This document shows positions 2,908 through 17,152 of a stretch of DNA of 23,092 nucleotides, piece by piece. Each line of letters opens with the position of its first letter. Within the stretch, counting starts at the first letter, position 1. The DNA is from Candidatus Hermodarchaeota archaeon (GTDB taxonomy: Archaea > Asgardarchaeota > Lokiarchaeia > Sigyniarchaeales > SOKP01), in NCBI GenBank assembly GCA_048885925.1, contig JBHLLG010000045.1, forward strand, positions 1-23,092, read 5' to 3'. The notes under the pieces were generated by a model. That model searched no databases, was not told the origin of the DNA, and saw only the letters and a program-made list of their open reading frames with translations. The position numbers were made by a program, and so were the translations under genes.

Positions 2908-3344
2908 ACTTTTAATTTTAAGAGTTTCTGCTTCAGATCGTCAGAAATTTTTGCTTTTCTTTAGTTTTCATAATCATACCAAATTTTATGAGATTCTCCT
3001 TCAGCTACTTTTCTTTCTAATTTCTCACTTACTAAAATATGTTTTATAATATTCTAAGATCCTTCTATACTAGTTATTTTTGCACCTACATATACGGTAT
3101 CGGGATACCTTAAAGGTGCTTTATAATAGCAATCTTGGTTAGATAATATATGTCCAATCCGAACTGATGTATGTTCTTCATAAATATCAAAGAATCTAAA
3201 TAATATTATTCGAGTGCATTCAAAATAACGATAATATATTGTATTGTTTACATGCCCTCTAGAATCCATGTCCCCCCATCGAATGGGTATTTCTTCTACT
3301 ATTGTATACTGAAAATGTAAAACATCTTTTTAGAAATGATCCAT
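2904..3344 (-). pseudogene. Acyl-CoA thioesterase (4HBT/YbgC-like hotdog fold) with three in-frame stops
   Basis: One continuous frame reads MDHF*KDVLHFQYTIVEEIPIRWGDMDSRGHVNNTIYYRYFE...YKAPLRYPD...GS*NIIKH...VAEGESHKIWYDYEN*RKAKISDDLKQKLLKLKV*. Stops lie at 3330-3332 (TAA), 3054-3056 (TAG) and 2961-2963 (TAA). Confidence 0.85.
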
Positions 3345-3545
3345 AGATTCTTTTTTTTAATCCTTTATCTATAATACACTAATACAGTTTTCAAATAAAA
3401 GTTATAAAATTTATTTAAAATTTTAGTTCAAAATTATCATATAACGATTAAATTCTCATTAAGAATCTTCAAATTTAATAATTCATTATTATCTTCAACA
3501 AAATTCATCTAATTTTACTTTTAAAAATTCTAAGGTTAAATAACC

Positions 3546-4106
3546 ATGGATCTAAAAGAAATAATTAATTTAAGAAGATCATACAGATCTATTACTCCTA
3601 TTAAAATTACACAAAATATCATTAATGACTTAGCTGAATGTGCAAGTTTAGCACCTTCTTGTAAAAATTCACAACCATGGAGATTTGTTTTTGTATTTGA
3701 AAATAACCAACTTCAAAAATTATTTAAAACTTTAAAATCTCCAAATGATAAATGGGCTGTTAATGCTTCTATGATTATAGTCATTTTCAGCAATGTAAAG
3801 TTTGATTGCATCATCAATGAACGTTTATATTATTTATTTGATAGTGGGATAGCCACTGCCTTCATTTTGCTTAGAGCCACTGAACTAGGATTAGTCGCAC
3901 ACCCAATAGCAGGTTTTGAGGAATCAATGGTAAAGGAAGTCCTTAATATCCCAGTAGATATGAGAGTAATTACCTTAATCATTATAGGAAAAAAATCTGA
4001 AACTGTAGATAGGAATTTAACAGAATTAATGATAAATACTGAATTTAATAAACCTTCACGTAAGAACTTTAAAGAATTCGCATACTTGAATAAATACACT
4101 CCTTAG
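3546..4106 (+). CDS. Nitroreductase family protein (copy 1)
   Basis: RRSYR, APSCKNSQPWRF, D.GIA...[12 protein letters not shown] motifs. Confidence 0.9.
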   Translation: MDLKEIINLRRSYRSITPIKITQNIINDLAECASLAPSCKNSQPWRFVFVFENNQLQKLFKTLKSPNDKWAVNASMIIVIFSNVKFDCIINERLYYLFDSGIATAFILLRATELGLVAHPIAGFEESMVKEVLNIPVDMRVITLIIIGKKSETVDRNLTELMINTEFNKPSRKNFKEFAYLNKYTP

Positions 4107-4327
4107 AAGATAATTTTTCTCACAAATTTAAACCTCCTATATCTATCTAGTGTTTATTCTATATCATATTATATTTTATTAATTTAATTCAGTTTAGATT
4201 TTAAATTAGTAAACTTTTATTATAGAAGTTTAATACACTATAACCCTAATATTGATAATTTATAGAAATTATTAACTATTAATAATATAAAATCCAAAAA
4301 TTACAAAAATTGAGAGCTATATATAAA

Positions 4328-4813
4328 ATGTCACAACAAATTCTTGAATTAAAAGAAGGAAATGATGCTCCTGAATTTACTCTTCCGGATAAAGACAATA
4401 AACTAATCTCTTTAAAAGAGTTTAAAGGAAAATATGTTATACTTTATTTTTACCCTGCAGATAATACACCCGCTTGCACAACCGAAGCTATTGGTTTTAC
4501 AGGAATTTTACCTGCATTAGAGAAATTAGATGCGGTAGTAATTGGAATCAGTCCTGATAGCCCCGAATCTCATGCTAAATTTATTGAAAAGAAAAATCTG
4601 AAAGTGATTCTATTAAGTGATGTTGATAATAAAGTAATCAAGAAATACGGTAAATGGGGAAAGAAGAAATTTAGAGGTAAAGAATATATTGGTGTTATTA
4701 GAAGTACATTTTTGATTGATCCAGAAGGTAAAATCGCTCATATTTGGCCTAAAGTTTCTGTTAAAGGTCATCCTGAAGAAGTAGAAAGTATTTTAAGAAA
4801 TTTAATAAAATAA
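4328..4813 (+). CDS. bcp: Peroxiredoxin Bcp/PrxQ family
   Basis: LYFYPADNTPACTTEA, GISPD, LLSD, RSTFLIDPEG and VKGH motifs. The ATG at 4328 is preferred over the TTG at 4310. Confidence 0.92.
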   Translation: MSQQILELKEGNDAPEFTLPDKDNKLISLKEFKGKYVILYFYPADNTPACTTEAIGFTGILPALEKLDAVVIGISPDSPESHAKFIEKKNLKVILLSDVDNKVIKKYGKWGKKKFRGKEYIGVIRSTFLIDPEGKIAHIWPKVSVKGHPEEVESILRNLIK

Positions 4814-4873
4814 TTTGTTTTTTCCTAATTTTTTTTAAAATTTTATGAATTTATTAAAAAGATAACTAATAAA

Positions 4874-5458
4874 ATGAATGTTAAAGAAGCAATAGAGAAA
4901 AGAAGAGCATATCGTTCCCTTGATTTTATTGAAGTTAATGATGATTTAATTATAGATTTAGCTAAAATAGCTCAAATTGCTCCTTCATGTGCCAATAAAC
5001 AACCATGGAATTTCATTTTTGTAAAAGATAAAAACCAATTAAATACATTATTTACAACGTTATCCGAAGGAAATAAATGGGTCGAAAAAGCCTCAATGAT
5101 TATAGCTGTATTCAGTAGACCTGAATTTGATTGCATAATAGAAGAACGTCAATATTTTGTATTTGATACAGGGCTTGCAACAGCATTCATAATCTTACGT
5201 GCTACAGAATTAGGATTAATTGCCCATCCAATAGCTGGCTATAATGAAGATCAAGCAAAAAAAATTCTTGAAATTCCTGTGGAGATGAGATTAATTACTC
5301 TTGTAATTATTGGAAAACATTCAAAAGAAATTAATCCAGTCCTTTCTGAAGCTATGAAGTTAGGAGAAAAACAACGTCCACCTAGGAAGAAATTAGAAGA
5401 TTTTATATTTCTAAATAGATATAATGACAAATTTATTGAAAAAGGAAGCAAAGAATGA
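4874..5458 (+). CDS. Nitroreductase family protein (copy 2)
   Basis: [17 protein letters not shown] and [15 protein letters not shown] motifs. Clear paralog of 3546..4106. Confidence 0.9.
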
Positions 5459-7536
5459 ATAATACGCTAATTAAAAATTATAAAAATCATTTATCAAATG
5501 AAAAAAGTCCATATTTACTTCAACATGTAAAGAATCCTGTAGATTGGTACCCATGGAGTGAAACGGCTTTTAAAAAGGCTAAAGAAGAGAATAAGCCAAT
5601 ATTTTTGTCAATAGGATATTCTACATGCCATTGGTGTCATGTAATGGCACATGAATCATTTGAAGATAAAGAAGTTGCTGAACTGATGAATGAGATATTT
5701 ATATCAATAAAAGTAGATAGAGAAGAGCGTCCTGATATTGATAAAGTATATATGACTGTATGTCAAATGATGACAGGGTCAGGAGGATGGCCACTTACCA
5801 TCATCATGACCCCCGATAAAAAACCTTTTTTTGCAGGGACTTATTTCCCAAAAGAAACTCGATTTGGGCGAATTGGATTAATTGATTTATTTATCCGTAT
5901 AAAAGAACTTTGGACTAATCAAAGAGATGAGTTATTGAATTCTGCCGAACAGATAACCTTCAGTCTTCAAAATCTAGATCAAGAACCACCTGGTGAAAAA
6001 TTAACCATAAATATTCTTAAAAAGACATACCAACAATTGTCAATACAATTTGATTCAAAAAATGGTGGATTTGGGAATCGTCCAAAATTCCCTACTCCCC
6101 ATAATCTTATCTTTCTACTACGATATTGGAAACGCACTGGAGACAGTAAAGCATTAGAAATGGTGGAAAAAACACTTTTAGAGATGAGAAAAGGAGGAAT
6201 ATACGACCATATTGGTTTTGGATTTCATAGGTATTCGACTGATTCATTCTGGTTTGTACCTCATTTTGAAAAAATGCTCTATGATCAAGCATTAATCGCA
6301 ATTGCTTACATTGAAGCCTATCAAGCAACTAAAAATAATTTATATAAAAGAACCGCACAAGAAATATTTACTTACGTTTTAAGAGACATGGTTTCCCCTG
6401 AAGGGGGCTTTTATTCTGCTGAAGATGCGGATAGTGAAGGAGTAGAGGGTAAATTTTATTTATGGTCCAAAATAGAACTTGAGAAAATTCTGGAGATAGA
6501 TCAACTAGATTTAATTCTGAAATTGTTTAACGTACACGAATTTGGCAATTATCTTGAAGAAGCATCGGCTAAACAAACAGGAAAAAATATTTTATATTTA
6601 AGTTCTCTTCCAGATAAAGAAATTATTGAAAAAATTGAAGAAATTCGTCTAATCCTTTTTGCTACAAGAGAAAGTAGAATTCATCCTCATAAAGATGATA
6701 AAATCTTAACCGATTGGAACGGATTAATGATTGCGGCATTAGTTAAAGGTGCTGTCGCTTTTCAAGAAGAAATTTATTTAGAAACAGCAAAAAAAGCTGT
6801 AAATTTTATTCTATCAAATCTCAAAGAATCTAATAATAATCTATTACATCGTTATAGAGCTGGTGTCTCCGAGATTAAAGGTTTTTTAACTGATTATGCT
6901 TTTTTTATCTGGGGTCTTATTGAATTATATGAAGCTACTTTTGATACTTTCTACTTAAAAACTGCTCTTGAACTACATAAAATTCTAATGGAAAATTTTT
7001 GGGATACTGATATAGGGGGATTTTTCTTCACTGCGAAAAATAGTGAAAATTTATTAACAAAACAAAAAGAAATATATGATGGTGCTATTCCTTCAGGTAA
7101 TTCAATAGCATTACTTAATTTATTGCGACTAAGCTACATTACAGGAAATCATGAATTGGAAGAGAAAGCAGATAAATTATTTAGGGTGTTTTCTGAAAAG
7201 ATAAAGGCAAACGTATTAGCTCATACTCAATTTTTAGTTGCTATCGATTTTGCAATAGGACCAAGTTATTCATTAGTTATAGCTGGCGATTCTAAAAGTA
7301 AAGATACAAAAGACTTTATTAATCTAATAAGTGATGAATATATTCCTAACAAAGTATTAATGCTTAGAAAGATCGATCAGGAAGTTCCAGATATCGATCA
7401 ATATTCAAATTTCGTTGAATTTTTTTATGATTATAAGAATAAAACTACCTCTTATGTTTGCATTAATAAAACATGTAAACCACCAACGAATGATATCAAT
7501 CAAACTTTAAAATACTTAAATCCTAAAAGAGAATAA
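5455..7536 (+). CDS. yyaL: Thioredoxin domain-containing protein, YyaL/SPATA20 (SSP411) family
   Basis: [60 protein letters not shown] and [10 protein letters not shown] motifs. ATGA overlap with the upstream gene. Confidence 0.95.
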
Positions 7537-7572
7537 TTTCAGAAGTAGTATAAAAGTTAAAGAAGATCTGAT

Positions 7573-7710
7573 TTATAAGCCAAATTCCTCAATTTTTTGA
7601 TTTACTAAGTCTATTAATTAATCGCTTGTTATCAAAGCATTCATTCTTTCTTGAGATATGAATAAATCTAATCCTGATGCATCCATAAAATAATTTAAAG
7701 GAAATTATTT
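7573..7710 (-). pseudogene. Degraded fragment paralogous to the C-terminus of the neighbouring gene
   Basis: K*FPLNYFMDASGLDLFISQERMNALITSD*LIDLVNQKIEEFGL* aligns by eye with KYPSAYILENGNLTLMISDDEMNLVKSLDEMKLLVISKINNL of 7759..8172. Confidence 0.6.
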
Positions 7711-7758
7711 ATTTCTTGTAAAAGAAATAATTAAAAAATATTATAAACTTACAAATAT

Positions 7759-8172
7759 CTAAATAATTCGAGCAGATTCACTAAACTCTGTAATATTTGG
7801 CAAATTATTAATCTTACTTATTACTAAAAGTTTCATTTCGTCTAAAGACTTTACCAAGTTCATTTCATCATCAGAGATCATGAGTGTTAAATTTCCATTC
7901 TCAAGGATATATGCTGAAGGATATTTTGCATCTTTAATATTATATTCTCTCTCAAATTCATCCCGATGCAAGAATTCAGTCTCAATATTAAGTTTATTAA
8001 TAAATGATTTCCAATCTTTTTTCATAGAGAATATCCCAAATGTCTGAAAACACAAATTACATTCATACGTACTTGGTCTAAGAATCTTTTTCCAAAAATC
8101 CTTGATTAAATTAATTACTCCAGAATCGGCATTATATACAAAAACGAGTTTTTTTTTATAAATATTCTTCAA
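7759..8172 (-). CDS. Conserved hypothetical CxxC protein (FVYNADSG...YxCxLC family)
   Basis: LVFVYNADSG, TYECNLC and FLHRDEF motifs. The TTG start at 8172 is preceded by a GGGGTG Shine-Dalgarno, so the longer ORF-track start at 8256 is unlikely. Confidence 0.75.
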   Translation of the reverse strand: MKNIYKKKLVFVYNADSGVINLIKDFWKKILRPSTYECNLCFQTFGIFSMKKDWKSFINKLNIETEFLHRDEFEREYNIKDAKYPSAYILENGNLTLMISDDEMNLVKSLDEMKLLVISKINNLPNITEFSESARII

Positions 8173-8280
8173 TTTAATTACACCCCGTGCTAAATTATAC
8201 ATATTACAACATTTTAATCTCTTTATTATCATCAATAAATTTTTTACCAAGAACACTGAAAAAATAAACGAGAAATTTTC

Positions 8281-8359
8281 AAAGAGCTATGAAAGTATTA
8301 CTTACTTTTTTAAAAGAAAAGATATTTTTTTATTAAATTCGAATACTTTTCATTCTTTT
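8281..8359 (-). promoter_or_regulatory. SECIS-like stem-loop (degenerate) downstream of the in-frame UGA
   Basis: Minus strand AAAGA-AUGA-AAAGUAUU-(42 nt)-AAUACUUU-CAU-AGC-UCUUU. Two helices flank an AUGA, but the 3' side has CA where a SECIS needs GA. Confidence 0.35.
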
Positions 8360-8443
8360 TCTATTAACACATAATAATCAACAATAAAAACAACGAATTA
8401 TCATTTCTAGATGATTTACTACACCTTCGGGAACTTCACTCAT
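8333..8443 (-). CDS. vhuU: VhuU/MvhU-like [NiFe]-hydrogenase C-terminal peptide with in-frame UGA (putative selenocysteine); divergent or decaying
   Basis: Translates MSEVPEGVVNHLEMIIRCFYC(UGA)LLCVNRKRMKSIRI*. The UGA at 8378-8380 aligns to U/C of the N-x-x-E-M-x-I-R-x-x-D-P-U-x-x-C-x-x-H motif. It has an upstream TATA and GTGA, and lies downstream of mvhG-hdrC-hdrB. Confidence 0.7.
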
Positions 8444-8470
8444 TTATTATTTTCACATTTATTTGTTGTT

Positions 8471-8490
8471 ATTATATATTAACCTTTTTT
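8471..8490 (-). promoter_or_regulatory. BRE + TATA box for the vhuU-like gene
   Basis: Minus strand AAAAAAGGTTAATATATAAT, about 30 nt upstream of the ATG at 8443. Confidence 0.55.
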
Positions 8491-8514
8491 AATTTGTAAA
8501 AAATTAGGATTGAA

Positions 8515-9402
8515 TTATTTTAAGTTGCATTTTTCAAGCAACCCTGTTAATCTAGCTCTATGAAAATTAAGTCCTAACTCATCGGGTTCAAATCCATATG
8601 CTAGTGCCATTAATTCAGTAATGTATAAAACTGGGATTGTATACTTTATCCCTGTATACTTTTCTAAATCTCTTAATTTGCTATCAAATTGCTGGAAACA
8701 TTGAGGACAATTTACAATAAAAGCTTCTGCCCCTGCGGAGACGGCACTTTTATATTTTTGTGCAAGTATTGCCATAGCTGGTTCAGACTCAGCGTGCTCT
8801 GTTCCTGCTCCACAACATATGACTTCTGTATCATATTCAACTGGAGTTGCTCCTACTGCTTGTACCAATGCTCTTAATTTTATTGGTTTCATAGGATCGT
8901 CAGTCTGTACCTTATCCGAAGGTCTCATATAATGACAACCCGTATGACATGCTACTTTTAACGCTGATAAGTCATTGACTACATGACTATTTATTTTCTC
9001 TTTTCCAATTTCGTATAAGACCTCAACAAAGTGGCGTACATTGATAATTCCCTTATATTCTTTGCCAATTTTTCTCAGTATCTCATTAGTCTTGTGTCTT
9101 CCATGATCATCGTGCTTCAACTCCTGATTAACTAATTTAAGGGTTTGAAAACATCCATTGCAAATACTCATAATATCTTTGCCTTCTGCCTCAGCAATTG
9201 TAAGATTATATGCACCTAAAGTTAACCAACTTAAATGATCGGTTGAAGCTTGACCAACAGGATCTGGACAGCACGCAAATGGTGCATCAGATATTTTAAT
9301 CCCTAATTTATCGAATACCTTTCTTGCAGATGCCTCTAAAAACGGAACTCTATTCCCAATAAAACAACCAGGGAAAAATTTGAATTCATTTACTTTAGCC
9401 AT
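8515..9402 (-). CDS. hdrB: Heterodisulfide reductase subunit B (divergent copy 1)
   Basis: Two complete CCG domains: PGC..CCPDP..CNGC and HTGCH..CCGAG..CPQC. Confidence 0.92.
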   Translation of the reverse strand: MAKVNEFKFFPGCFIGNRVPFLEASARKVFDKLGIKISDAPFACCPDPVGQASTDHLSWLTLGAYNLTIAEAEGKDIMSICNGCFQTLKLVNQELKHDDHGRHKTNEILRKIGKEYKGIINVRHFVEVLYEIGKEKINSHVVNDLSALKVACHTGCHYMRPSDKVQTDDPMKPIKLRALVQAVGATPVEYDTEVICCGAGTEHAESEPAMAILAQKYKSAVSAGAEAFIVNCPQCFQQFDSKLRDLEKYTGIKYTIPVLYITELMALAYGFEPDELGLNFHRARLTGLLEKCNLK

Positions 9403-9415
9403 TGTTTTTATTCTC

Positions 9416-9916
9416 TTATTCTTTTTTTATTAGTTTAATTAGTTTTGTTTCAGTTAAAAGTTTTTGAACATCATCTTTTGATGGATTTTGTACAATTGGA
9501 AGGCCTAATTGTTCCCTACGTCTTTCAATTGCAGGTTGGGAAGGTATTGCCTTTCCATAATCATAAATTGCCGATGCTTGGCCAATAAAATAATCTGGAC
9601 CTTCACCTCTAGCAATGCTTATATTTTTTAAAATGTAGAATACTTCAGTTAACTCAATTTTTTGTGGACATACTTCATCGCAGGTATCGCATACAGTGCA
9701 CCCCCAAATATTGAAATTTGATTCTAAACCAAACAATGAGTCCTTTAACCCTAAAAATGCATTAAGTATTAAGGGTCGAGGGCGATATCTATTATTTGTT
9801 ACCTTTGCAACAGGACATTCATCTGTACAACGATTACATTGATAACAATTTTTCAGTATGTCTTTGATATGAACATCCATTACTCTTTTTTTAAATTCAT
9901 AATCTATAACAACCAT
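9416..9916 (-). CDS. hdrC: Heterodisulfide reductase subunit C (copy 1)
   Basis: CYQCNRCTDECP and WGCTVCDTCDEVCP motifs; directly upstream of hdrB. Confidence 0.9.
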   Translation of the reverse strand: MVVIDYEFKKRVMDVHIKDILKNCYQCNRCTDECPVAKVTNNRYRPRPLILNAFLGLKDSLFGLESNFNIWGCTVCDTCDEVCPQKIELTEVFYILKNISIARGEGPDYFIGQASAIYDYGKAIPSQPAIERRREQLGLPIVQNPSKDDVQKLLTETKLIKLIKKE

Positions 9917-9947
9917 ATTAGGTTCACATTACTATAATTCTAATATA

Positions 9948-11348
9948 TTATTCATTTTCCATTTTATCATGATATTTATGCCCTAAAGTACTTGCTGCTA
10001 ATGTAAATCGATTAAACAACCCTGCTGGATCTTTAATCGTATTCATTATCTCTTCAAGGTCCTTATCTTTACAAAGAGAACCTAAAGTACTAATAAATTT
10101 AGCTCCTTGGTCTTTAATTCCTGTCGCAGCCCCAAAGCATCCCAAGCAAGGAGCGTTTGCTTTATTCGGGCATATTGTTCCGCAACCTGCTTGTGTCACT
10201 GGTCCTAAACAAACATAACCTTGCTCTAAAAAGCAAATATCCATAGTTGGTAAACCTTCATAATCACGTTTTAATTGAGATGGTATTTTATCTGCAATTT
10301 CTCTATCACAGTGGCTACATACTGTTTTAGTACTAAATTTAAAGTTAGGATCATCTTTCAAGAGATATAAAAAAGTACCAATTAAATTATCTATGATTGC
10401 ATTTCCAGTTGGTGAAACATCTAAAGCATATTTCTTACCTTTTTTCGTCTGGATTTCTTTTATTTTGAAACTTTCAGGTTCATATGCTAATCTTTGGATT
10501 AGATCTCCACGAAAATAAAAATTCGTAAGATTTGATGCTCCTAAATATAAATCAAGGAAATGTTGAAGGCTAGAAGCTTGTTCTGGTGATAAAACAACTA
10601 TCTCTTCAAATATATCTTTCAATTGATTTGCTTTTTCACCTAAATTGTCTGTTGGTTTGAAACATCCGTAGCAAATATCACCATCGTTTGGACACATTAA
10701 ATCACATCCCGCAGCCGTGATTGAACCGTAACACAACTTTCCTTCGTTCAAAAAGCAACGATCATTATTTAATTTACAAGTATCACATACACACTCTTTT
10801 TTATTAAGAGATGCTGGACTTTTTGCTACTAATGTAAGTAAATATGAAATAGCAGCGACAATATTATCAGTTGTAGGTGGACAACCAGGAATAAACATAT
10901 CTACATCAATTATATCTTTCGCATTAATTATGTAATCCTCAAATCCCGGAACATGTTCTATAGGTTCCTTTGGATCTTCAGTTGTAATCGATTCATTTTC
11001 AATAAATTTGCGTTTTACAAGTTCTTCTTTATCGTATAAATTTGCTAAACCCATTACGCTCCCATAACAAGGACAAGCTCCAAGAGCAACAATAATAGAA
11101 CACTTTTTTCTCATTAACTTTATATTATCAAGATCTTTTTTTGTTCTCACGACACCTTCAAGAAATCCTACTAAAATATCAGCTTCTGGTTTCTCTTTTA
11201 GGGACTTTTCTTTAAAGTCTACAACCGCAGGCCAATAAACAATATCTAATTGTGGTAATATTGGAAGTAAGTCAAAATGTGCATTTAAAAGACTCTGGTG
11301 ACACCCCCAGCAACTGCTTAATTGCATAAAAGCTACTTTTACTGGCAT
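9948..11348 (-). CDS. mvhG: F420-non-reducing hydrogenase small subunit (MvhG/VhuG-like), extended with a duplicated C-terminal Fe-S module
   Basis: SSCWGCH, EG, GACPCYG and IPGCPP motifs. Then VCDTC..CFLNEGKLCYGSITAAGCDLMCP....CYGCF and a second VCSHC..CFLEQGYVCLGPVTQAGCGTICP.....CLGCFG. ATG at 11348 (TTG 11357 is an alternative). Confidence 0.88.
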   Translation of the reverse strand: MPVKVAFMQLSSCWGCHQSLLNAHFDLLPILPQLDIVYWPAVVDFKEKSLKEKPEADILVGFLEGVVRTKKDLDNIKLMRKKCSIIVALGACPCYGSVMGLANLYDKEELVKRKFIENESITTEDPKEPIEHVPGFEDYIINAKDIIDVDMFIPGCPPTTDNIVAAISYLLTLVAKSPASLNKKECVCDTCKLNNDRCFLNEGKLCYGSITAAGCDLMCPNDGDICYGCFKPTDNLGEKANQLKDIFEEIVVLSPEQASSLQHFLDLYLGASNLTNFYFRGDLIQRLAYEPESFKIKEIQTKKGKKYALDVSPTGNAIIDNLIGTFLYLLKDDPNFKFSTKTVCSHCDREIADKIPSQLKRDYEGLPTMDICFLEQGYVCLGPVTQAGCGTICPNKANAPCLGCFGAATGIKDQGAKFISTLGSLCKDKDLEEIMNTIKDPAGLFNRFTLAASTLGHKYHDKMENE

Positions 11349-11930
11349 TTTTTTCAATATTTTTTTCTATTTTAATTTCTATTAATAAATTTATAATTTA
11401 TTAAAAATTTGTTCATTAACTATAATAATATTCAATTAAATGATCAGAATAATCCATAACAAAAAAAATAAGTAAGAAAATAATATATTGACTATATTAT
11501 ATACTCAGTAATCTTTTCTTTCCATAAACTATTAAAAATTATATATAGATTAGCTCTCATTTATTATTTTTCTAAAGAATAAATTAAAACAAATGACTTA
11601 AAGTCAAAATTGTCTTTTCGAAATTTTTATTAAACTCCAAATTAAATAAAAATTTTTTTCAAATATGATCATAATTATAGGAAAGGATAATTTAATCTAG
11701 TTTTTTGACTAATTTAACAAATAGAAATTAGAAAGTATATCGATAAGTTAAATTTTGATGATTTTTAGTAACATATTCTGTTTTATGTGATCGATTCTCG
11801 ATTTTTCCCTCCAAAAATTAAATGGTTTACGTAATATTTTTTATGTCTAAGGACGGAATCCGTCATTTCAAGTTCGAGGATTTACATTTTTGTACTTCAT
11901 ATGATCACAGATTTGGCGAAAAACAGCATC

Positions 11931-12244: not shown

Positions 12245-12826
12245 ATGACTAAAAGCTGGAATAGTTATATCAAAAGACAAACTTATACAACCATCAACTC
12301 TGATATACAACACAAGTTTAAAGGCATGGGACTAGAAATTCTTCGTTCTTGTATAAATTGTGGGACGTGTACAGGAAGTTGTCCATCAGGAAGGAGAACA
12401 GCATTACGTACGCGATCTTTAATCCGAAGAGCCTTAATTGGCGATGAAAGTATTTTAAATGAAATCGACTTATGGTTTTGCTCAACATGCTATACCTGTT
12501 ATGAGCGGTGTCCCCGAGCCATCCCTATTACAGATATACTACTAAAATTAAGAAATTTAGCAGTTGAGAAAGGCAAAATATTAGATTCTCATTTCAATTT
12601 ATGTGAATTATTTTATGACACTGGTCATGGGGTTCCAATAAATGCTCCTGATCATCAACGATGGCGAGATTTACGCAAATCTTTAGATCTACCTGAATTA
12701 CCTCCAACAGTCCATTCTTTTCAAAAAGAACTTAAAGAATGCCAAACGATTATGGAATTAAATGGATTTAAAAGGTTGTTAGATAACTTAAGAGCCCAAA
12801 AAGAAGAAGAGATAATGCTTGCTTAG
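12245..12826 (+). CDS. hdrC: Heterodisulfide reductase subunit C (copy 2)
   Basis: CINCGTCTGSCPSGRRT, WFCSTCYTCYERCPR, TGHGVPIN and PPTVH motifs. Confidence 0.95.
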   Translation: MTKSWNSYIKRQTYTTINSDIQHKFKGMGLEILRSCINCGTCTGSCPSGRRTALRTRSLIRRALIGDESILNEIDLWFCSTCYTCYERCPRAIPITDILLKLRNLAVEKGKILDSHFNLCELFYDTGHGVPINAPDHQRWRDLRKSLDLPELPPTVHSFQKELKECQTIMELNGFKRLLDNLRAQKEEEIMLA

Positions 12827-12864
12827 TTAACATATTTATTAAATATAGACAGAGGTGAAAAAGA

Positions 12865-13821
12865 TTGGGCTTTAGAAAAAGATGGAGCTATGGATTTTTT
12901 TTGGGTTGTATAATACCAAACAGATATCCTATGATTTCTGCTAGTATAAGAGAAACTTTTAATATTCTTGGTGCTAAATTATATGAACTGAGAGGTGCAT
13001 CATGTTGTCCAGCCCCAGGAGTTTTTAAAAGTTTTCATAATCCTACTTGGGAAATGATCGCAGCTAGAAATTTAACTATAGCAGAAGAATTAGGAGTAAA
13101 TATTGTAACGGGATGCAATGGATGCTATAGTACATTAAGAGATGCTTGGTATGAATTTCAACACAATCCAGAGAAGAAAAAAACAGTAAATGAAGTTCTT
13201 TCTAAAATTGGTCGAGAATTTAAGGGTACTCATGTACCAAAGCATATTGTTGAAGTCCTATATCTAGATATGGGAAAGGATTACATAAGTGATTACATTA
13301 AATTTAAATTTAACAACTTGCGTTGTGCCGTTCATTATGGATGTCATCTTGTTAAACCAAGTGAGAAACGTCCTTGGAATGGAAAATGTGAACGTCCCAG
13401 ATTCCTAGATGAGATTGTTGAATTAACAGGTGCCGCAAGTATTGATTACACAGATAAATATATGTGTTGTGGGGCGGGAGGAGCTGTTCGAACTGCAGTA
13501 AAGGAAGTTTCTGCGGATTTTACCCGTGAAAAATTAATAAATATGCGAGATGCGGGAGTAGATGTCATCATAACAGCATGTCCATTCTGTCATATGCAAT
13601 TTGATTTAGGACAAGTTGAAGTAAATAACATTTATCAAGATATAATTGGTGAACCATTCAAAATTCCAGTTATTTATATTACACAATTATTAGGACTGGC
13701 AATGGGGATTAATCCTTATAAATTAGGATTAATAAAAAACCCTGATTTAGAAGGTGTAACACCATTTATATCTATTAACCCCTTTTTAAATATTATTAAA
13801 AATAATTTTGTTATAAAATAA
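12865..13821 (+). CDS. hdrB: Heterodisulfide reductase subunit B (copy 2)
   Basis: FLGCIIPNRYP, GASCCPAPGVF, CNGCY, HYGCH, CCGAGG and CPFCH motifs. TTG start after a GAGGTGA Shine-Dalgarno. Confidence 0.95.
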   Translation: MGFRKRWSYGFFLGCIIPNRYPMISASIRETFNILGAKLYELRGASCCPAPGVFKSFHNPTWEMIAARNLTIAEELGVNIVTGCNGCYSTLRDAWYEFQHNPEKKKTVNEVLSKIGREFKGTHVPKHIVEVLYLDMGKDYISDYIKFKFNNLRCAVHYGCHLVKPSEKRPWNGKCERPRFLDEIVELTGAASIDYTDKYMCCGAGGAVRTAVKEVSADFTREKLINMRDAGVDVIITACPFCHMQFDLGQVEVNNIYQDIIGEPFKIPVIYITQLLGLAMGINPYKLGLIKNPDLEGVTPFISINPFLNIIKNNFVIK

Positions 13822-13822
13822 A

Positions 13823-15820
13823 ATGGTGGAAGCTACCAAAAAAATATATATAACTGGCAATGAAAAACCAAAAATTGGAGTTTATATTTGTCATTGTGGT
13901 GTAAACATTGGAGGAGTAATTTCTGTACAAGATTTAGTAGATTACACTTTAACCCTTCCTGATGTAAATATAGTTCGGGAATATAAATTTTTCTGCTCAG
14001 AAGTGGGCCAGAATATAATTAAAGAGGATATTCAATCAGGATTAGTTAATAGAGTTGTTGTTGCTGCATGTTCTCCTCGAATGCACGAATCTACTTTTAG
14101 AATAGTATTAAAAGAAGCAGGCTTGAATCAATTTTTGTTCGAACAAGCGAATATAAGGGAACATTCTACATGGGTTCACATGAGAGAACCAAAAGGTGCT
14201 TATGAAACCGCTAAAGACCTAATTAGAATGTCTGTAGCAAGATCAAGAAAATTACAACCCTTAGAAGTTACAACTGTCAAAGTTGAACCAGCTTGTTTAG
14301 TGGTTGGAGCTGGCATTTCTGGAATGAATGCAGCATTAGATCTTGCAAATGAGGGATATAAAGTATATCTAGTTGAGAAATCTGCAACAATAGGAGGTCA
14401 TATGGCTCAATTGGATAAAACCTTTCCTACAATGGATTGTAGCGCATGCATTTTAACACCTAGGATGGTAGATATTGCTAGAAATGAAAATATTGAGTTA
14501 TTTACATATTCAGAAATAATAGATATTAAGGGTTATATCGGAAATTTTGAAGTTACTATTAATAAAAAGCCGCACTATATTGATCAAAACAAATGCACAG
14601 GATGCGGAATATGTGTTGATTTTTGCCCTACTTATTGTGATAATGAATTTGATCTTGGTTTATCTTCAAGAAAAGCAATATATATTCCATTCCCCCAAGC
14701 AGTTCCAGGAAAATATACAATTGACATTGATCATTGTATAAAATGCGGGATTTGCGCAAGAAAAGATGTTTGTGAACCTGAAGCTATAAATTTTGATGAC
14801 AAACCTGAATATGTGGATGTGAAAGTAGGAACAATTATCATAGCAACTGGGTGGGATTTATATGATCCAACAGAGCTAGAACAATATGGATATGGTAGAT
14901 ATCCAAATGTTATAACAGGACTTCAAATGGAGCGATTATTAAGTGCTACAGGCCCTTTAGCAGGAAGACCTGTTCGACCATCAGATCTTAAAGAACCACA
15001 TAATATTGCCTTTCTCCAATGTGTTGGAAGTCGAAATTTTAGAGATGGAGGAAATAAATACTGTTCTAGAGTATGTTGTATGTATGCAACTAAACAAGCA
15101 CGACAATACAAAGAAAAACATCCAGATGCTGATGTATATATCTATTACATGGACATTAGAGCTTTTGGAAAAGGTTATGAAGAATTTTACGAATCTGGGG
15201 CTGAAAATTATGGAATAAGTTACATCCGAGGTAGAATTGCTGATGTAAGGGAAGGTAAGGATCATAATATCATTATAAGAGCTGAAGATACACTGCTGCA
15301 GCAACCAATTGAAGCCACTGTTAATATGTTGATTCTTTCTTGTGGTTTGGAACCTAGCGCTGATGCTGATTTACTGACTTCTTTATTAAGGATCCAGAGA
15401 TCATCAGATGGATTTTTTATGGAAGCCCATCCAAAATTAAGACCAGTAGATACTCTAACTGAGGGGATTTTTATAGCAGGTGTCGCCCAAGGGCCAAAAG
15501 ACATCCCAGATTCTGTTGCCCAAGCCAAAGGGGCCGCATCTAGTGCTGCTGTATTAATGGCTAAAGGTGAAGTCGAAATGGAGCCATTTTCTGCTATTGT
15601 ACGACCAGAGCGTTGTATAGCATGCGGAATGTGTGTTGAAATTTGTTCGTATAACGCTATTGAATTGATCAATGGTACAAGGTTAAGTAAAGTGGCTTTT
15701 GTTAATCCAGCATTATGTAAAGGGTGTGGTCTTTGTTCAGGTAATTGTAGATGTTCAGCAATAGATATTTTCGGATTTACTAATGAACAAATCTATTCTA
15801 TGATAACTAAAAGGTTGTAA
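13823..15820 (+). CDS. hdrA: Heterodisulfide reductase subunit A (FAD/Fe-S), plus-strand copy
   Basis: GVYICHCGVNI, AACSPRMHE, GAGISG, LDKTFPTMDCSAC, inserted ferredoxin domain, CVGSR..YCSRVCCMY, GPKDIPD, and C-terminal ferredoxin motifs. Confidence 0.97.
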   Translation: MVEATKKIYITGNEKPKIGVYICHCGVNIGGVISVQDLVDYTLTLPDVNIVREYKFFCSEVGQNIIKEDIQSGLVNRVVVAACSPRMHESTFRIVLKEAGLNQFLFEQANIREHSTWVHMREPKGAYETAKDLIRMSVARSRKLQPLEVTTVKVEPACLVVGAGISGMNAALDLANEGYKVYLVEKSATIGGHMAQLDKTFPTMDCSACILTPRMVDIARNENIELFTYSEIIDIKGYIGNFEVTINKKPHYIDQNKCTGCGICVDFCPTYCDNEFDLGLSSRKAIYIPFPQAVPGKYTIDIDHCIKCGICARKDVCEPEAINFDDKPEYVDVKVGTIIIATGWDLYDPTELEQYGYGRYPNVITGLQMERLLSATGPLAGRPVRPSDLKEPHNIAFLQCVGSRNFRDGGNKYCSRVCCMYATKQARQYKEKHPDADVYIYYMDIRAFGKGYEEFYESGAENYGISYIRGRIADVREGKDHNIIIRAEDTLLQQPIEATVNMLILSCGLEPSADADLLTSLLRIQRSSDGFFMEAHPKLRPVDTLTEGIFIAGVAQGPKDIPDSVAQAKGAASSAAVLMAKGEVEMEPFSAIVRPERCIACGMCVEICSYNAIELINGTRLSKVAFVNPALCKGCGLCSGNCRCSAIDIFGFTNEQIYSMITKRL

Positions 15821-16714: not shown

Positions 16715-17152
16715 TTACCTCCTTAGTCTTTTTTCTTCTTTGATTGGATTAGGACCTAATTCTTTGATTTCTTCTACATATTCTTTGACAATTTCTGTTA
16801 ACTCAGCACCTTCAGAAGCAGATACGAATGTGTATTTCACTCTCTTAGGATTAATTCCAAATTGTTTTAAATATAAGTGTAAAAGTGTCATTTTTTGTAT
16901 TGTTTTAAGATTCCCTTCTACATAATGACAATCTCCTGGGTGGCAATGACTTACCATCACCCCATCAGCTCCATTCATAAGGGCGTTAAGAATATATTGA
17001 GGATCGACTCTACCCCCACACATTACTCTTATGATTCTTAAATTAGCTGGTCGTTGCATTCTTGATGTTCCTGCACCGTCAGCACCCGCGTAAGAGCACC
17101 AATTACAAAAAATTCCTAAAATATATGGGTCAAACGTTTCCAGAGTACTCAA
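16715..17152 (-). CDS. mvhD: Hydrogenase iron-sulfur subunit MvhD ([2Fe-2S] adaptor of HdrA)
   Basis: FCNWCSYAGAD.AG, RVMCGGRVDP, GADGV...CHPGDCHY..GN and SASEG motifs. The TTG start overlaps the hdrA TGA stop. Confidence 0.96.
   Translation of the reverse strand: MSTLETFDPYILGIFCNWCSYAGADGAGTSRMQRPANLRIIRVMCGGRVDPQYILNALMNGADGVMVSHCHPGDCHYVEGNLKTIQKMTLLHLYLKQFGINPKRVKYTFVSASEGAELTEIVKEYVEEIKELGPNPIKEEKRLRR

Follow-up and report, generated by a model that had tools for sequence, protein, structure and literature searches.

Introduction

In unsplit [NiFe]-hydrogenase large subunits the C-terminal nickel (Ni)-binding motif reads D-P-C-x-x-C-x-x-H/R, and VhuU is that segment encoded by a separate gene. 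Its Methanococcales form is represented by the equivalog model NF041786. In Lokiarchaeia, a VhuU.1 of about 50 residues has been described, with a selenocysteine insertion sequence (SECIS), the lokiSECIS, whose AUGA doubles as the stop codon (Mariotti et al. 2016, PMC4989117). Here we examine a short vhuU-like frame in a 23,092-nucleotide (nt) stretch of DNA, hereafter the window, which comprises positions 1 to 23,092 of contig JBHLLG010000045.1 from a Candidatus Hermodarchaeota archaeon (GenBank assembly GCA_048885925.1; order Sigyniarchaeales). The frame runs along the minus strand from 8443 to 8333 and contains an in-frame TGA. An initial annotation had offered two readings of it: a novel cysteine (Cys)- and selenocysteine (Sec)-rich active-site peptide for a split hydrogenase, or a decaying fossil recording the loss of Sec use. 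Our analysis indicates that the frame is very probably a non-functional, truncated remnant of vhuU and not a new active-site peptide.

Set against VhuU.1 and its lokiSECIS, as presented in the parts of PMC4989117 that describe them, the remnant shares the leader, the first 25 codons and a UGA at the Sec position. Past codon 25 it no longer corresponds to the VhuU described there; the histidine (His), the 21-residue tail and the SECIS are lacking, and a tyrosine (Tyr) takes the place of the invariant aspartate (Asp). The intact copies of the lineage do match those parts of the description, with AA after the stem in the host's own copy on contig C7 and in part of its congeners, and GA in others. 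The remnant also shares the N-x-x-E-x-x-x-R spacing and the Sec position with the Methanococcales VhuU, whereas intact copies of this lineage read D-C-U and not the D-P-U quoted in the initial annotation. Relative to the unsplit large subunit, whose C-terminus in the FrhA and HydA models is matched by the intact C7 VhuU as well, all that the remnant keeps is the first Cys/Sec position with one further Cys codon, and the end of the motif is absent. By descent the stub is a member of the VhuU family that was described from Lokiarchaeia in 2016, and it holds nothing new in active-site chemistry. A search of full-text literature found no VhuU pseudogene; the supplements of PMC4989117 and PMC11227280, on all Loki/Asgard VhuU, lay outside that search and may list one.

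Results

Homology of the frame to VhuU

The frame comprises 36 codons, MSEVPEGVVNHLEMIIRCFYC-TGA-LLCVNRKRMKSIRI-TAA, with the TGA at codon 22. Its position after an mvhG-hdrC-hdrB run, given in the initial annotation, was confirmed: the three genes are vhuG-like, hdrC-like and hdrB-like and lie on the same strand (Table 1; the window copies are written vhuG', hdrC' and hdrB'). Comparison of vhuU within the order covered the metagenome-assembled host genome (3.9 Mb, 181 contigs, 29% G+C, about 95% complete, 4.4% contamination) and 39 other genomes, and 11 metagenome contigs were retrieved with HdrB' as query (42-87% identity). A tblastn-type search aligned residues 1-26 of the remnant to the host's intact C7 vhuU with E = 9.5e-8. 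By blastn, orthologous vhuU genes matched over 78 nt at 78-81% identity; for metagenome contig L094 the identity was 81% over 78 nt with E = 2.6e-14, an E-value that refers to a small database. The NCBIfam VhuU model NF041786 matched residues 3-25 at model positions 2-24 of 45 (16 bits, E 0.0077). Its cut-off of 70 bits is not reached by the remnant, nor by the intact copies of the lineage, which score 50-52 bits. Judged by these alignments, the frame is homologous to VhuU beyond chance expectation, its TGA aligning with the Sec codon of intact vhuU, and the VhuU identity proposed for it is borne out.

The homology has a sharp end. At the DNA level it spans about 78 nt (8445..8368). By blastn, alignments run through the frame in seven of the 11 metagenome contigs. 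The alignment ends exactly at 8368 in five of them (72-81% identity) and at 8374 in the other two; 8368 is likewise the end point of local alignments to the vhuU genes of C7 and of a congener. On the upstream side, the leader aligns with the C7 vhuA-vhuU spacer as far as about 8493, where the alignment is weak and the stretch of low complexity. The V-N-R and the KRMKSIRI tail beyond the break are thus unrelated sequence joined by a deletion, not diverged vhuU. An ordinary TGA-containing vhuU is present in one or two copies in 29 of the 39 other genomes, and none of the 39 yielded a TGA-containing match reaching past query residue 26.

Residues were compared across 38 intact VhuU, comprising the C7 copy (host genome G000, C7:33919-34068, minus strand), 29 copies from relatives' genomes and eight from metagenome contigs (the 37 further loci being L019-L047 and L092-L101). 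The pattern used to collect them fixed N10, E13, R17 and C25, which makes the invariance of these four uninformative, and left D20, S24, A26 and H28 free. Each of the latter is invariant (38/38), and at these positions the remnant reads Y, L, V and R. Its H11 and Y20 occur in none of the 38. After the His, 36 copies continue with a tail of 21 residues (AAH, then tail); the remnant frame has 8 unrelated residues. Intact VhuU of the lineage read R-C-[FY]-D-C-U, with Cys18 in all 38 and Cys21, which directly precedes Sec where the textbook motif has proline, in 37. The Cys-x-x-Cys-Sec arrangement is thus the lineage norm, and C-x-x-C-U-x-x-C, initially taken for a peculiarity of this copy, is none. 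As to the substitutions DP to YC and H to R that had been proposed, D to Y alone is derived; the final R is not a substituted His because it lies beyond the homology break at 8368. The Ni-binding motif D-[P/C]-U-x-x-C-x-x-H is incomplete in the remnant, with Y for D and the x-x-H falling past that break.

Among the intact copies, a D-P-Sec reading is confined to L042, and in L047 a Cys replaces Sec, adjoining the preceding Cys. The vhuU of L037, from congener G012, has a premature TAA six codons past the His, and the other codons of the tail, like the SECIS, can still be made out downstream of it. The gene may have begun to decay, or a shorter cleaved tail may be tolerated.

SECIS search

A strict lokiSECIS pattern run over the whole genome missed the C7 element, which has a 13-nt loop, so a relaxed scan and a covariance model (R1) built from 18 genus-level vhuU 3' regions were used. 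R1 scored the C7 SECIS, one of the 18 training sequences, at 96.8 bits and matched all eight intact orthologous vhuU at 51-86 bits (nine sources searched, L096 having neither vhuU nor SECIS). Over the whole window, with filters off, the best R1 match reached 14.7 bits (E 0.5), and none lay at or just after the frame; the nearest downstream of it was at 7939-8017 (10 bits, E 5.4). The relaxed scan for AUGA-stem-loop-(G/A)A, which found 15 of 18 control loci, gave no credible element over 8460..7600, and Rfam, searched over 7500-9000 with E values of up to 10 allowed, returned only two chance-level matches, mir-9465 and U7. Because the published lokiSECIS acts in cis and none was found here, the UGA of the frame would be a stop.

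Elsewhere in the host genome, further lokiSECIS-shaped elements lie at C5:47914-47992 (-), C11 ~60221 (-), C47 ~6017 (-) and C23 ~14217 (+). All four have ATGA, a 9-bp stem, a loop AAAAAT..TAG and then GA or AA, and the C5 element also scores 39.8 bits with R1, the VhuU-SECIS model. They presumably belong to other selenoprotein genes.

The window operon and its relatives

In the closest metagenome contigs the gene order is vhuG-vhuA-hdrC-hdrB-vhuU+SECIS. An intact vhuU directly follows hdrB in 8 of the 11 contigs; it has 49-50 codons in seven of them and 73 in L098, counted there from a first ATG that is probably upstream of the true start. Of the remaining contigs, L099 ends inside hdrB and L102 is distant. 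The contigs whose sequence extends far enough upstream carry vhuA between vhuG' and hdrC', complete in L094 and L099 and as a 3' end in L092, L093, L095 and L100. Aligned with L094 (Table 1), the window lacks two blocks. The first includes L094 1614-2915, which encodes a 434-amino-acid (aa) VhuA, and the second holds the rest of vhuU with its SECIS, a CDP-alcohol phosphatidyltransferase gene, a 436-aa open reading frame (ORF) and a DUF1499 gene. Beyond the second block, the 165-aa neighbour of the remnant is 57-63% identical to L092 4898-5290 and L094 7413-7796 (tblastn), and in L092 its homologue stands at the same spacing from vhuU as in L094. The window operon can therefore be described as the relatives' operon minus vhuA and minus the stretch from the 3' half of vhuU through to the next retained gene. 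No large-subunit gene (PF00374) was matched anywhere on the window contig.

Table 1. Features around the vhuU remnant and their counterparts in metagenome contig L094 (identities and gaps by blastn; aa, amino acids)
Feature	Window position	Strand	L094 position	Remarks
vhuG-like [NiFe]-hydrogenase small-subunit gene, 469 aa, intact	9948..11357	-		NF045875 VhuG 244 bits (cut-off 450); Pfam Oxidored_q6
hdrC-like gene, 166 aa, intact	9416..9916	-		Domain/family matches; homologues in metagenome contigs
hdrB-like gene, 295 aa, intact	8515..9402	-		TIGR03288 267 bits (cut-off 345); Pfam CCG domains
Site of vhuA in closest relatives (~1.38 kb there)	9920..9957	-		38 nt left: vhuG' end and spacer before hdrC'
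Spacer from hdrB' to remnant, with GTGA (8456..8453) and AT-rich leader	8444..8514	-		Aligns with C7 vhuA-vhuU spacer
Putative 5' remnant of vhuU, start codon to first base after second Cys codon (codons 1-25)	8368..8443	-		Only part homologous to intact vhuU
TGA codon, homologous to Sec codon of intact vhuU	8378..8380	-		TAA in X5 and X6 contigs
Non-homologous tail of open frame (…VNRKRMKSIRI, then stop)	8333..8367	-		No alignment to any vhuU locus beyond 8368
Interval from stop to next gene, without SECIS	8257..8332	-		R1 model, pattern scan and Rfam negative
Downstream neighbour, 165 aa, no family match	7759..8256	-		~2.9 kb beyond vhuU in relatives
Aligned block: vhuG'	11417..9958	-	146-1601	78%
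Aligned block: vhuA	absent (38 nt remain)	-	1602-2983	Gap
Aligned block: hdrC', hdrB'	9919..8547	-	2984-4388	77%
Aligned block: vhuU, first 78 nt	8445..8368	-	4440-4517	81%
Aligned block: second missing block	absent	-	4518-7445	Gap, ~2.9 kb
Aligned block: 165-aa neighbour	8157..7822	-	7446-7781	70%

VhuG' is 76% identical to its L094 homologue, and HdrB' is 65-87% identical to homologues on contigs L092-L100. The ratio of nonsynonymous to synonymous substitution rates (dN/dS) against L094 was 0.13 for vhuG' and 0.08 for hdrC'; being averages along a long path, these values say nothing of constraint after the deletions. Saturation of dS left hdrB' without a ratio (dN 0.10). The 469 residues of VhuG' do not make it abnormally long or fused, the C7 VhuG frame having about 448 aa and those of congeners about 434-460 aa. 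A vhuU placed after hdrB is not a rearrangement in itself, since this is the normal order in the closest contigs; vhuG-hdrC-hdrB-vhuA-vhuU, considered as the ancestral order of the window operon, was replaced by that of these closer comparators.

That third gene order, vhuG-hdrC-hdrB-vhuA-vhuU, occurs in L084, L085 and L086, from other families or genera of the order, so within the order vhuA/vhuU have shifted with respect to hdrCB two or more times. L096 has a vhuG-vhuA-hdrC-hdrB operon whose VhuA-like protein is 53-55% identical to the others, is apparently intact and keeps RICGTC; no vhuU or SECIS was found within 3.5 kb after its hdrB. Homologues of VhuG' (61-63% identical) occur in six congeners (L078-L083) without a hdrC, hdrB or vhuA match alongside. 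The neighbourhood was inspected in one of the six, L078, where hypE, hypD, a PI-PLC-like gene and hypF follow, so that a lone small-subunit gene stands next to hydrogenase maturation genes. The VhuA of window-type operons (L094, L099, L093) is 86-92% identical to C7 VhuA, and that of congeners 85-96%, whereas VhuG, HdrC and HdrB of C7 are only 44-58% identical to those of window-type operons. The catalytic and electron-transfer genes seem to have had different histories, via recombination or gene conversion.

Two further hdrC-hdrB-hdrA sets lie in the window, at 12245-15820 (+) and 20710-16715 (-). Downstream of the minus-strand set comes a VhuD/MvhD-like ORF (16715-17152), with a 4-nt overlap, in a different frame, between its start and the hdrA stop. 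Neither of the hdrA frames (671 and 665 aa) is interrupted or contains an in-frame TGA, and the two appear to be Cys forms.

Selenocysteine use in the host

Contig C7 carries the operon vhuG-vhuA-vhuU-hdrC-hdrB. Its VhuA (434 aa) is without the C-terminal Ni-binding segment, and its vhuU has 49 codons with one TGA at the Sec position, MSDIPEGVVNLLEMIVRCFDC-TGA-LSCAAH followed by 21 residues. The final TGA of this vhuU is the UGA of an AUGA motif that opens a 9-bp stem, with an A-rich loop and then AA. Of the three PF00374 large subunits in the assembly, two (on C39 and C11) have a DPCISC..H end of their own and the third, on C7, adjoins its own vhuU; no orphan tail-less large subunit was found among them. 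An MvhA lacking the DPCxxCxxH tail, envisaged initially as a possible partner of the peptide, is missing from the window operon, and the only tail-less one, C7 VhuA, is already paired.

SepSecS (TIGR03531, 478 bits, over the cut-off) lies at C8:83884-85185 (+), and selD (TIGR00476, 177 bits, also over the cut-off) contains one in-frame TGA. Eighty nt upstream of SepSecS, at C8:83730-83804 (+), is a tRNA-Sec candidate with the anticodon loop CTTCAAA and hence the anticodon UCA, which scored 34.1 bits with RF01852, under the gathering score of 47. ARAGORN called 12 tRNAs in the whole genome with no tRNA-Sec among them, and was silent at the C8 candidate; it is evidently insensitive here and was not used as evidence. 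For PSTK, TIGR03574 gave only weak N-terminal matches (at most 27 bits against a cut-off of 290). Of the Sec machinery, SepSecS and selD were found, tRNA-Sec is represented by a candidate, and PSTK was not found with this model. Because SepSecS, a UGA-containing selD, a UCA tRNA candidate and an intact Sec-vhuU with SECIS are present, the host genome appears to keep Sec use, and the fragment would record the loss of one redundant hydrogenase copy, not of selenocysteine. The idea of a decaying fossil therefore holds as to the fossil and fails as to the loss of Sec use.

Population variants and junctions

Independently assembled contigs from runs X5, X6 and X7, of three different studies, cover 8150-10100 (1,951 nt) with 11-16 single-base differences and bridge both junctions. 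The whole stretch lies in one contig each for X5 and X6 and in two overlapping contigs for X7; run X12 covered part of hdrB' only and did not reach the frame. An artefact, whether an ORF open by chance in AT-rich DNA or a chimera produced during assembly, would be conceivable in an assembly of 181 contigs, and a G+C content of 29% makes short open frames common. Since independent contigs bridge the junctions, the join is not a misassembly, and the frame has significant homology to vhuU; we consider the probability of an artefact close to nil.

X5 and X6 have TAA at the former Sec position and Tyr in place of Cys21, with codon 24 still serine. Codon 22 is a stop codon, either TGA or TAA, in each of the four versions compared. 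The changes are all G:C to A:T transitions and fall on separate branches for the window and for X5/X6: one lineage shows CTA to TTA and TCA to TTA, the other TGT to TAT and TGA to TAA. The 258-nt interval 8257-8514, which holds the frame, accounts for eight of the 11 differences in X5/X6 and for 5 of the 16 in X7. The flanking coding sequence, about 1,650 nt long, has the other three of X5/X6, two of them synonymous. The frame evolves like spacer DNA, and its UGA is unprotected. Differences are also denser in 8257-8514 than at the synonymous sites of the genes on either side, an excess for which relaxed constraint accounts in direction, though perhaps not in full size.

These variants bear on the hypothesis that the frame is a functional, separately made Sec active-site peptide of a new kind (C-x-x-C-U-x-x-C), with the UGA read through, for a split hydrogenase. 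The host genome uses Sec, and the frame has an ATG, a GTGA leader and a UGA at the homologous Sec position. Arginine in place of His as the endopeptidase site is possible in principle, as in E. coli HycE; the homology, however, ends before the R is reached, so that it is not a substituted H, and the invariant Asp is lost. No SECIS match accompanies the frame, against one in every intact orthologous vhuU. The operon has no vhuA, the assembly has no orphan tail-less large subunit and the form was not found in the 39 other genomes. The TAA allele in two independent assemblies, together with Cys21 to Tyr, contradicts this hypothesis. With the 3' half of the gene, the SECIS and vhuA all missing, the novel peptide of the initial annotation is not supported, and we regard such a peptide as extremely unlikely.

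A second hypothesis is that the 21 residues before the UGA, the N-terminal half of VhuU, are translated and useful, for instance in binding VhuA in competition with full VhuU or as a regulatory leader. Its start codon and leader persist, residues 1-19 largely resemble those of intact VhuU, and codon 22 remains a stop as described. The H11 and Y20 that this peptide would carry are, however, foreign to all 38 intact VhuU, codon 21 alternates between Cys and Tyr among near-identical strains, the segment changes as fast as the intergenic DNA around it, and the truncated form was not found in the relatives (39 other genomes). Such a role for the peptide seems to us very unlikely, though less so than readthrough.

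Discussion

A truncated remnant of vhuU is the reading to which all the main observations point: homology that stops abruptly, broken synteny, no SECIS match, the replacement of invariant residues and a polymorphism between TGA and TAA. The ancestral operon would have been vhuG-vhuA-hdrC-hdrB-vhuU, with a lokiSECIS overlapping the vhuU stop codon, as is still intact in the closest metagenomic relatives. Two deletions would then have occurred, in an order that we infer. One would have taken out vhuA. In the other, vhuU would have been lost from codon 26 on (alanine-alanine-His with its 21-residue tail), together with the SECIS and some 2.9 kb of genes further downstream. Left over would be the leader and, starting with the ATG, 25 codons, among them the one that had encoded Sec, fused to unrelated AT-rich sequence that happened to stay open for 11 more codons. 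With the UGA read as a stop for want of a SECIS in cis, the product would be a peptide of at most 21 residues, without the second Ni-ligand Cys and with no partner large subunit in its operon, and the fragment would probably not be translated into anything useful. It would since have drifted as intergenic DNA, a second complete vhu-hdr operon, on C7, having remained.

Several observations weigh against this interpretation. The three flanking genes are intact, and the low dN/dS of the two for which it was computed indicates that the operon as a whole is not dead. The remnant retains its ATG, GTGA leader and reading frame, and at 78-81% its identity to relatives is not below that of its neighbours (about 77%), so that decay has not gone far; TGA also persists in the window and in run X7. 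A SECIS of unknown shape could escape models built on known ones. C7 and C45 might not share one cell, given 4.4% contamination, and a second tail-less vhuA could be among the roughly 5% of the genome that is missing from the assembly. The homology break, the missing vhuA and the TAA allele are unaffected by these assembly caveats or by a SECIS of unknown form.

The intact vhuG'-hdrC'-hdrB' genes could be an electron-transfer module that borrows VhuA and VhuU from C7, giving one catalytic core with two small-subunit/Hdr modules. We consider this improbable. If it were true, the vhuU stub would mark where redundant catalytic genes were shed, and the lone vhuG' of six congeners, beside hyp genes, would be a later stage of the same streamlining.

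As a truncated remnant of vhuU, the frame resembles ordinary deletion pseudogenes in redundant paralogous operons in its sharp homology boundary, the loss of neighbours and the strain-specific, AT-ward substitutions. It differs only in its selenoprotein origin, through which the stranded UGA mimics a recoding site. The finding matters mostly for annotation. When a selenoprotein gene is truncated, the Sec codon left stranded has exactly the appearance of a new recoding site, and such stubs would be miscounted in selenoproteome surveys that use Sec/UGA alignment without demanding a SECIS and a full-length match. The locus is also a small natural example of an Asgard-type archaeon shedding one of two paralogous Vhu catalytic gene pairs while Sec decoding is kept, with closely related populations carrying both the TGA and the TAA allele.

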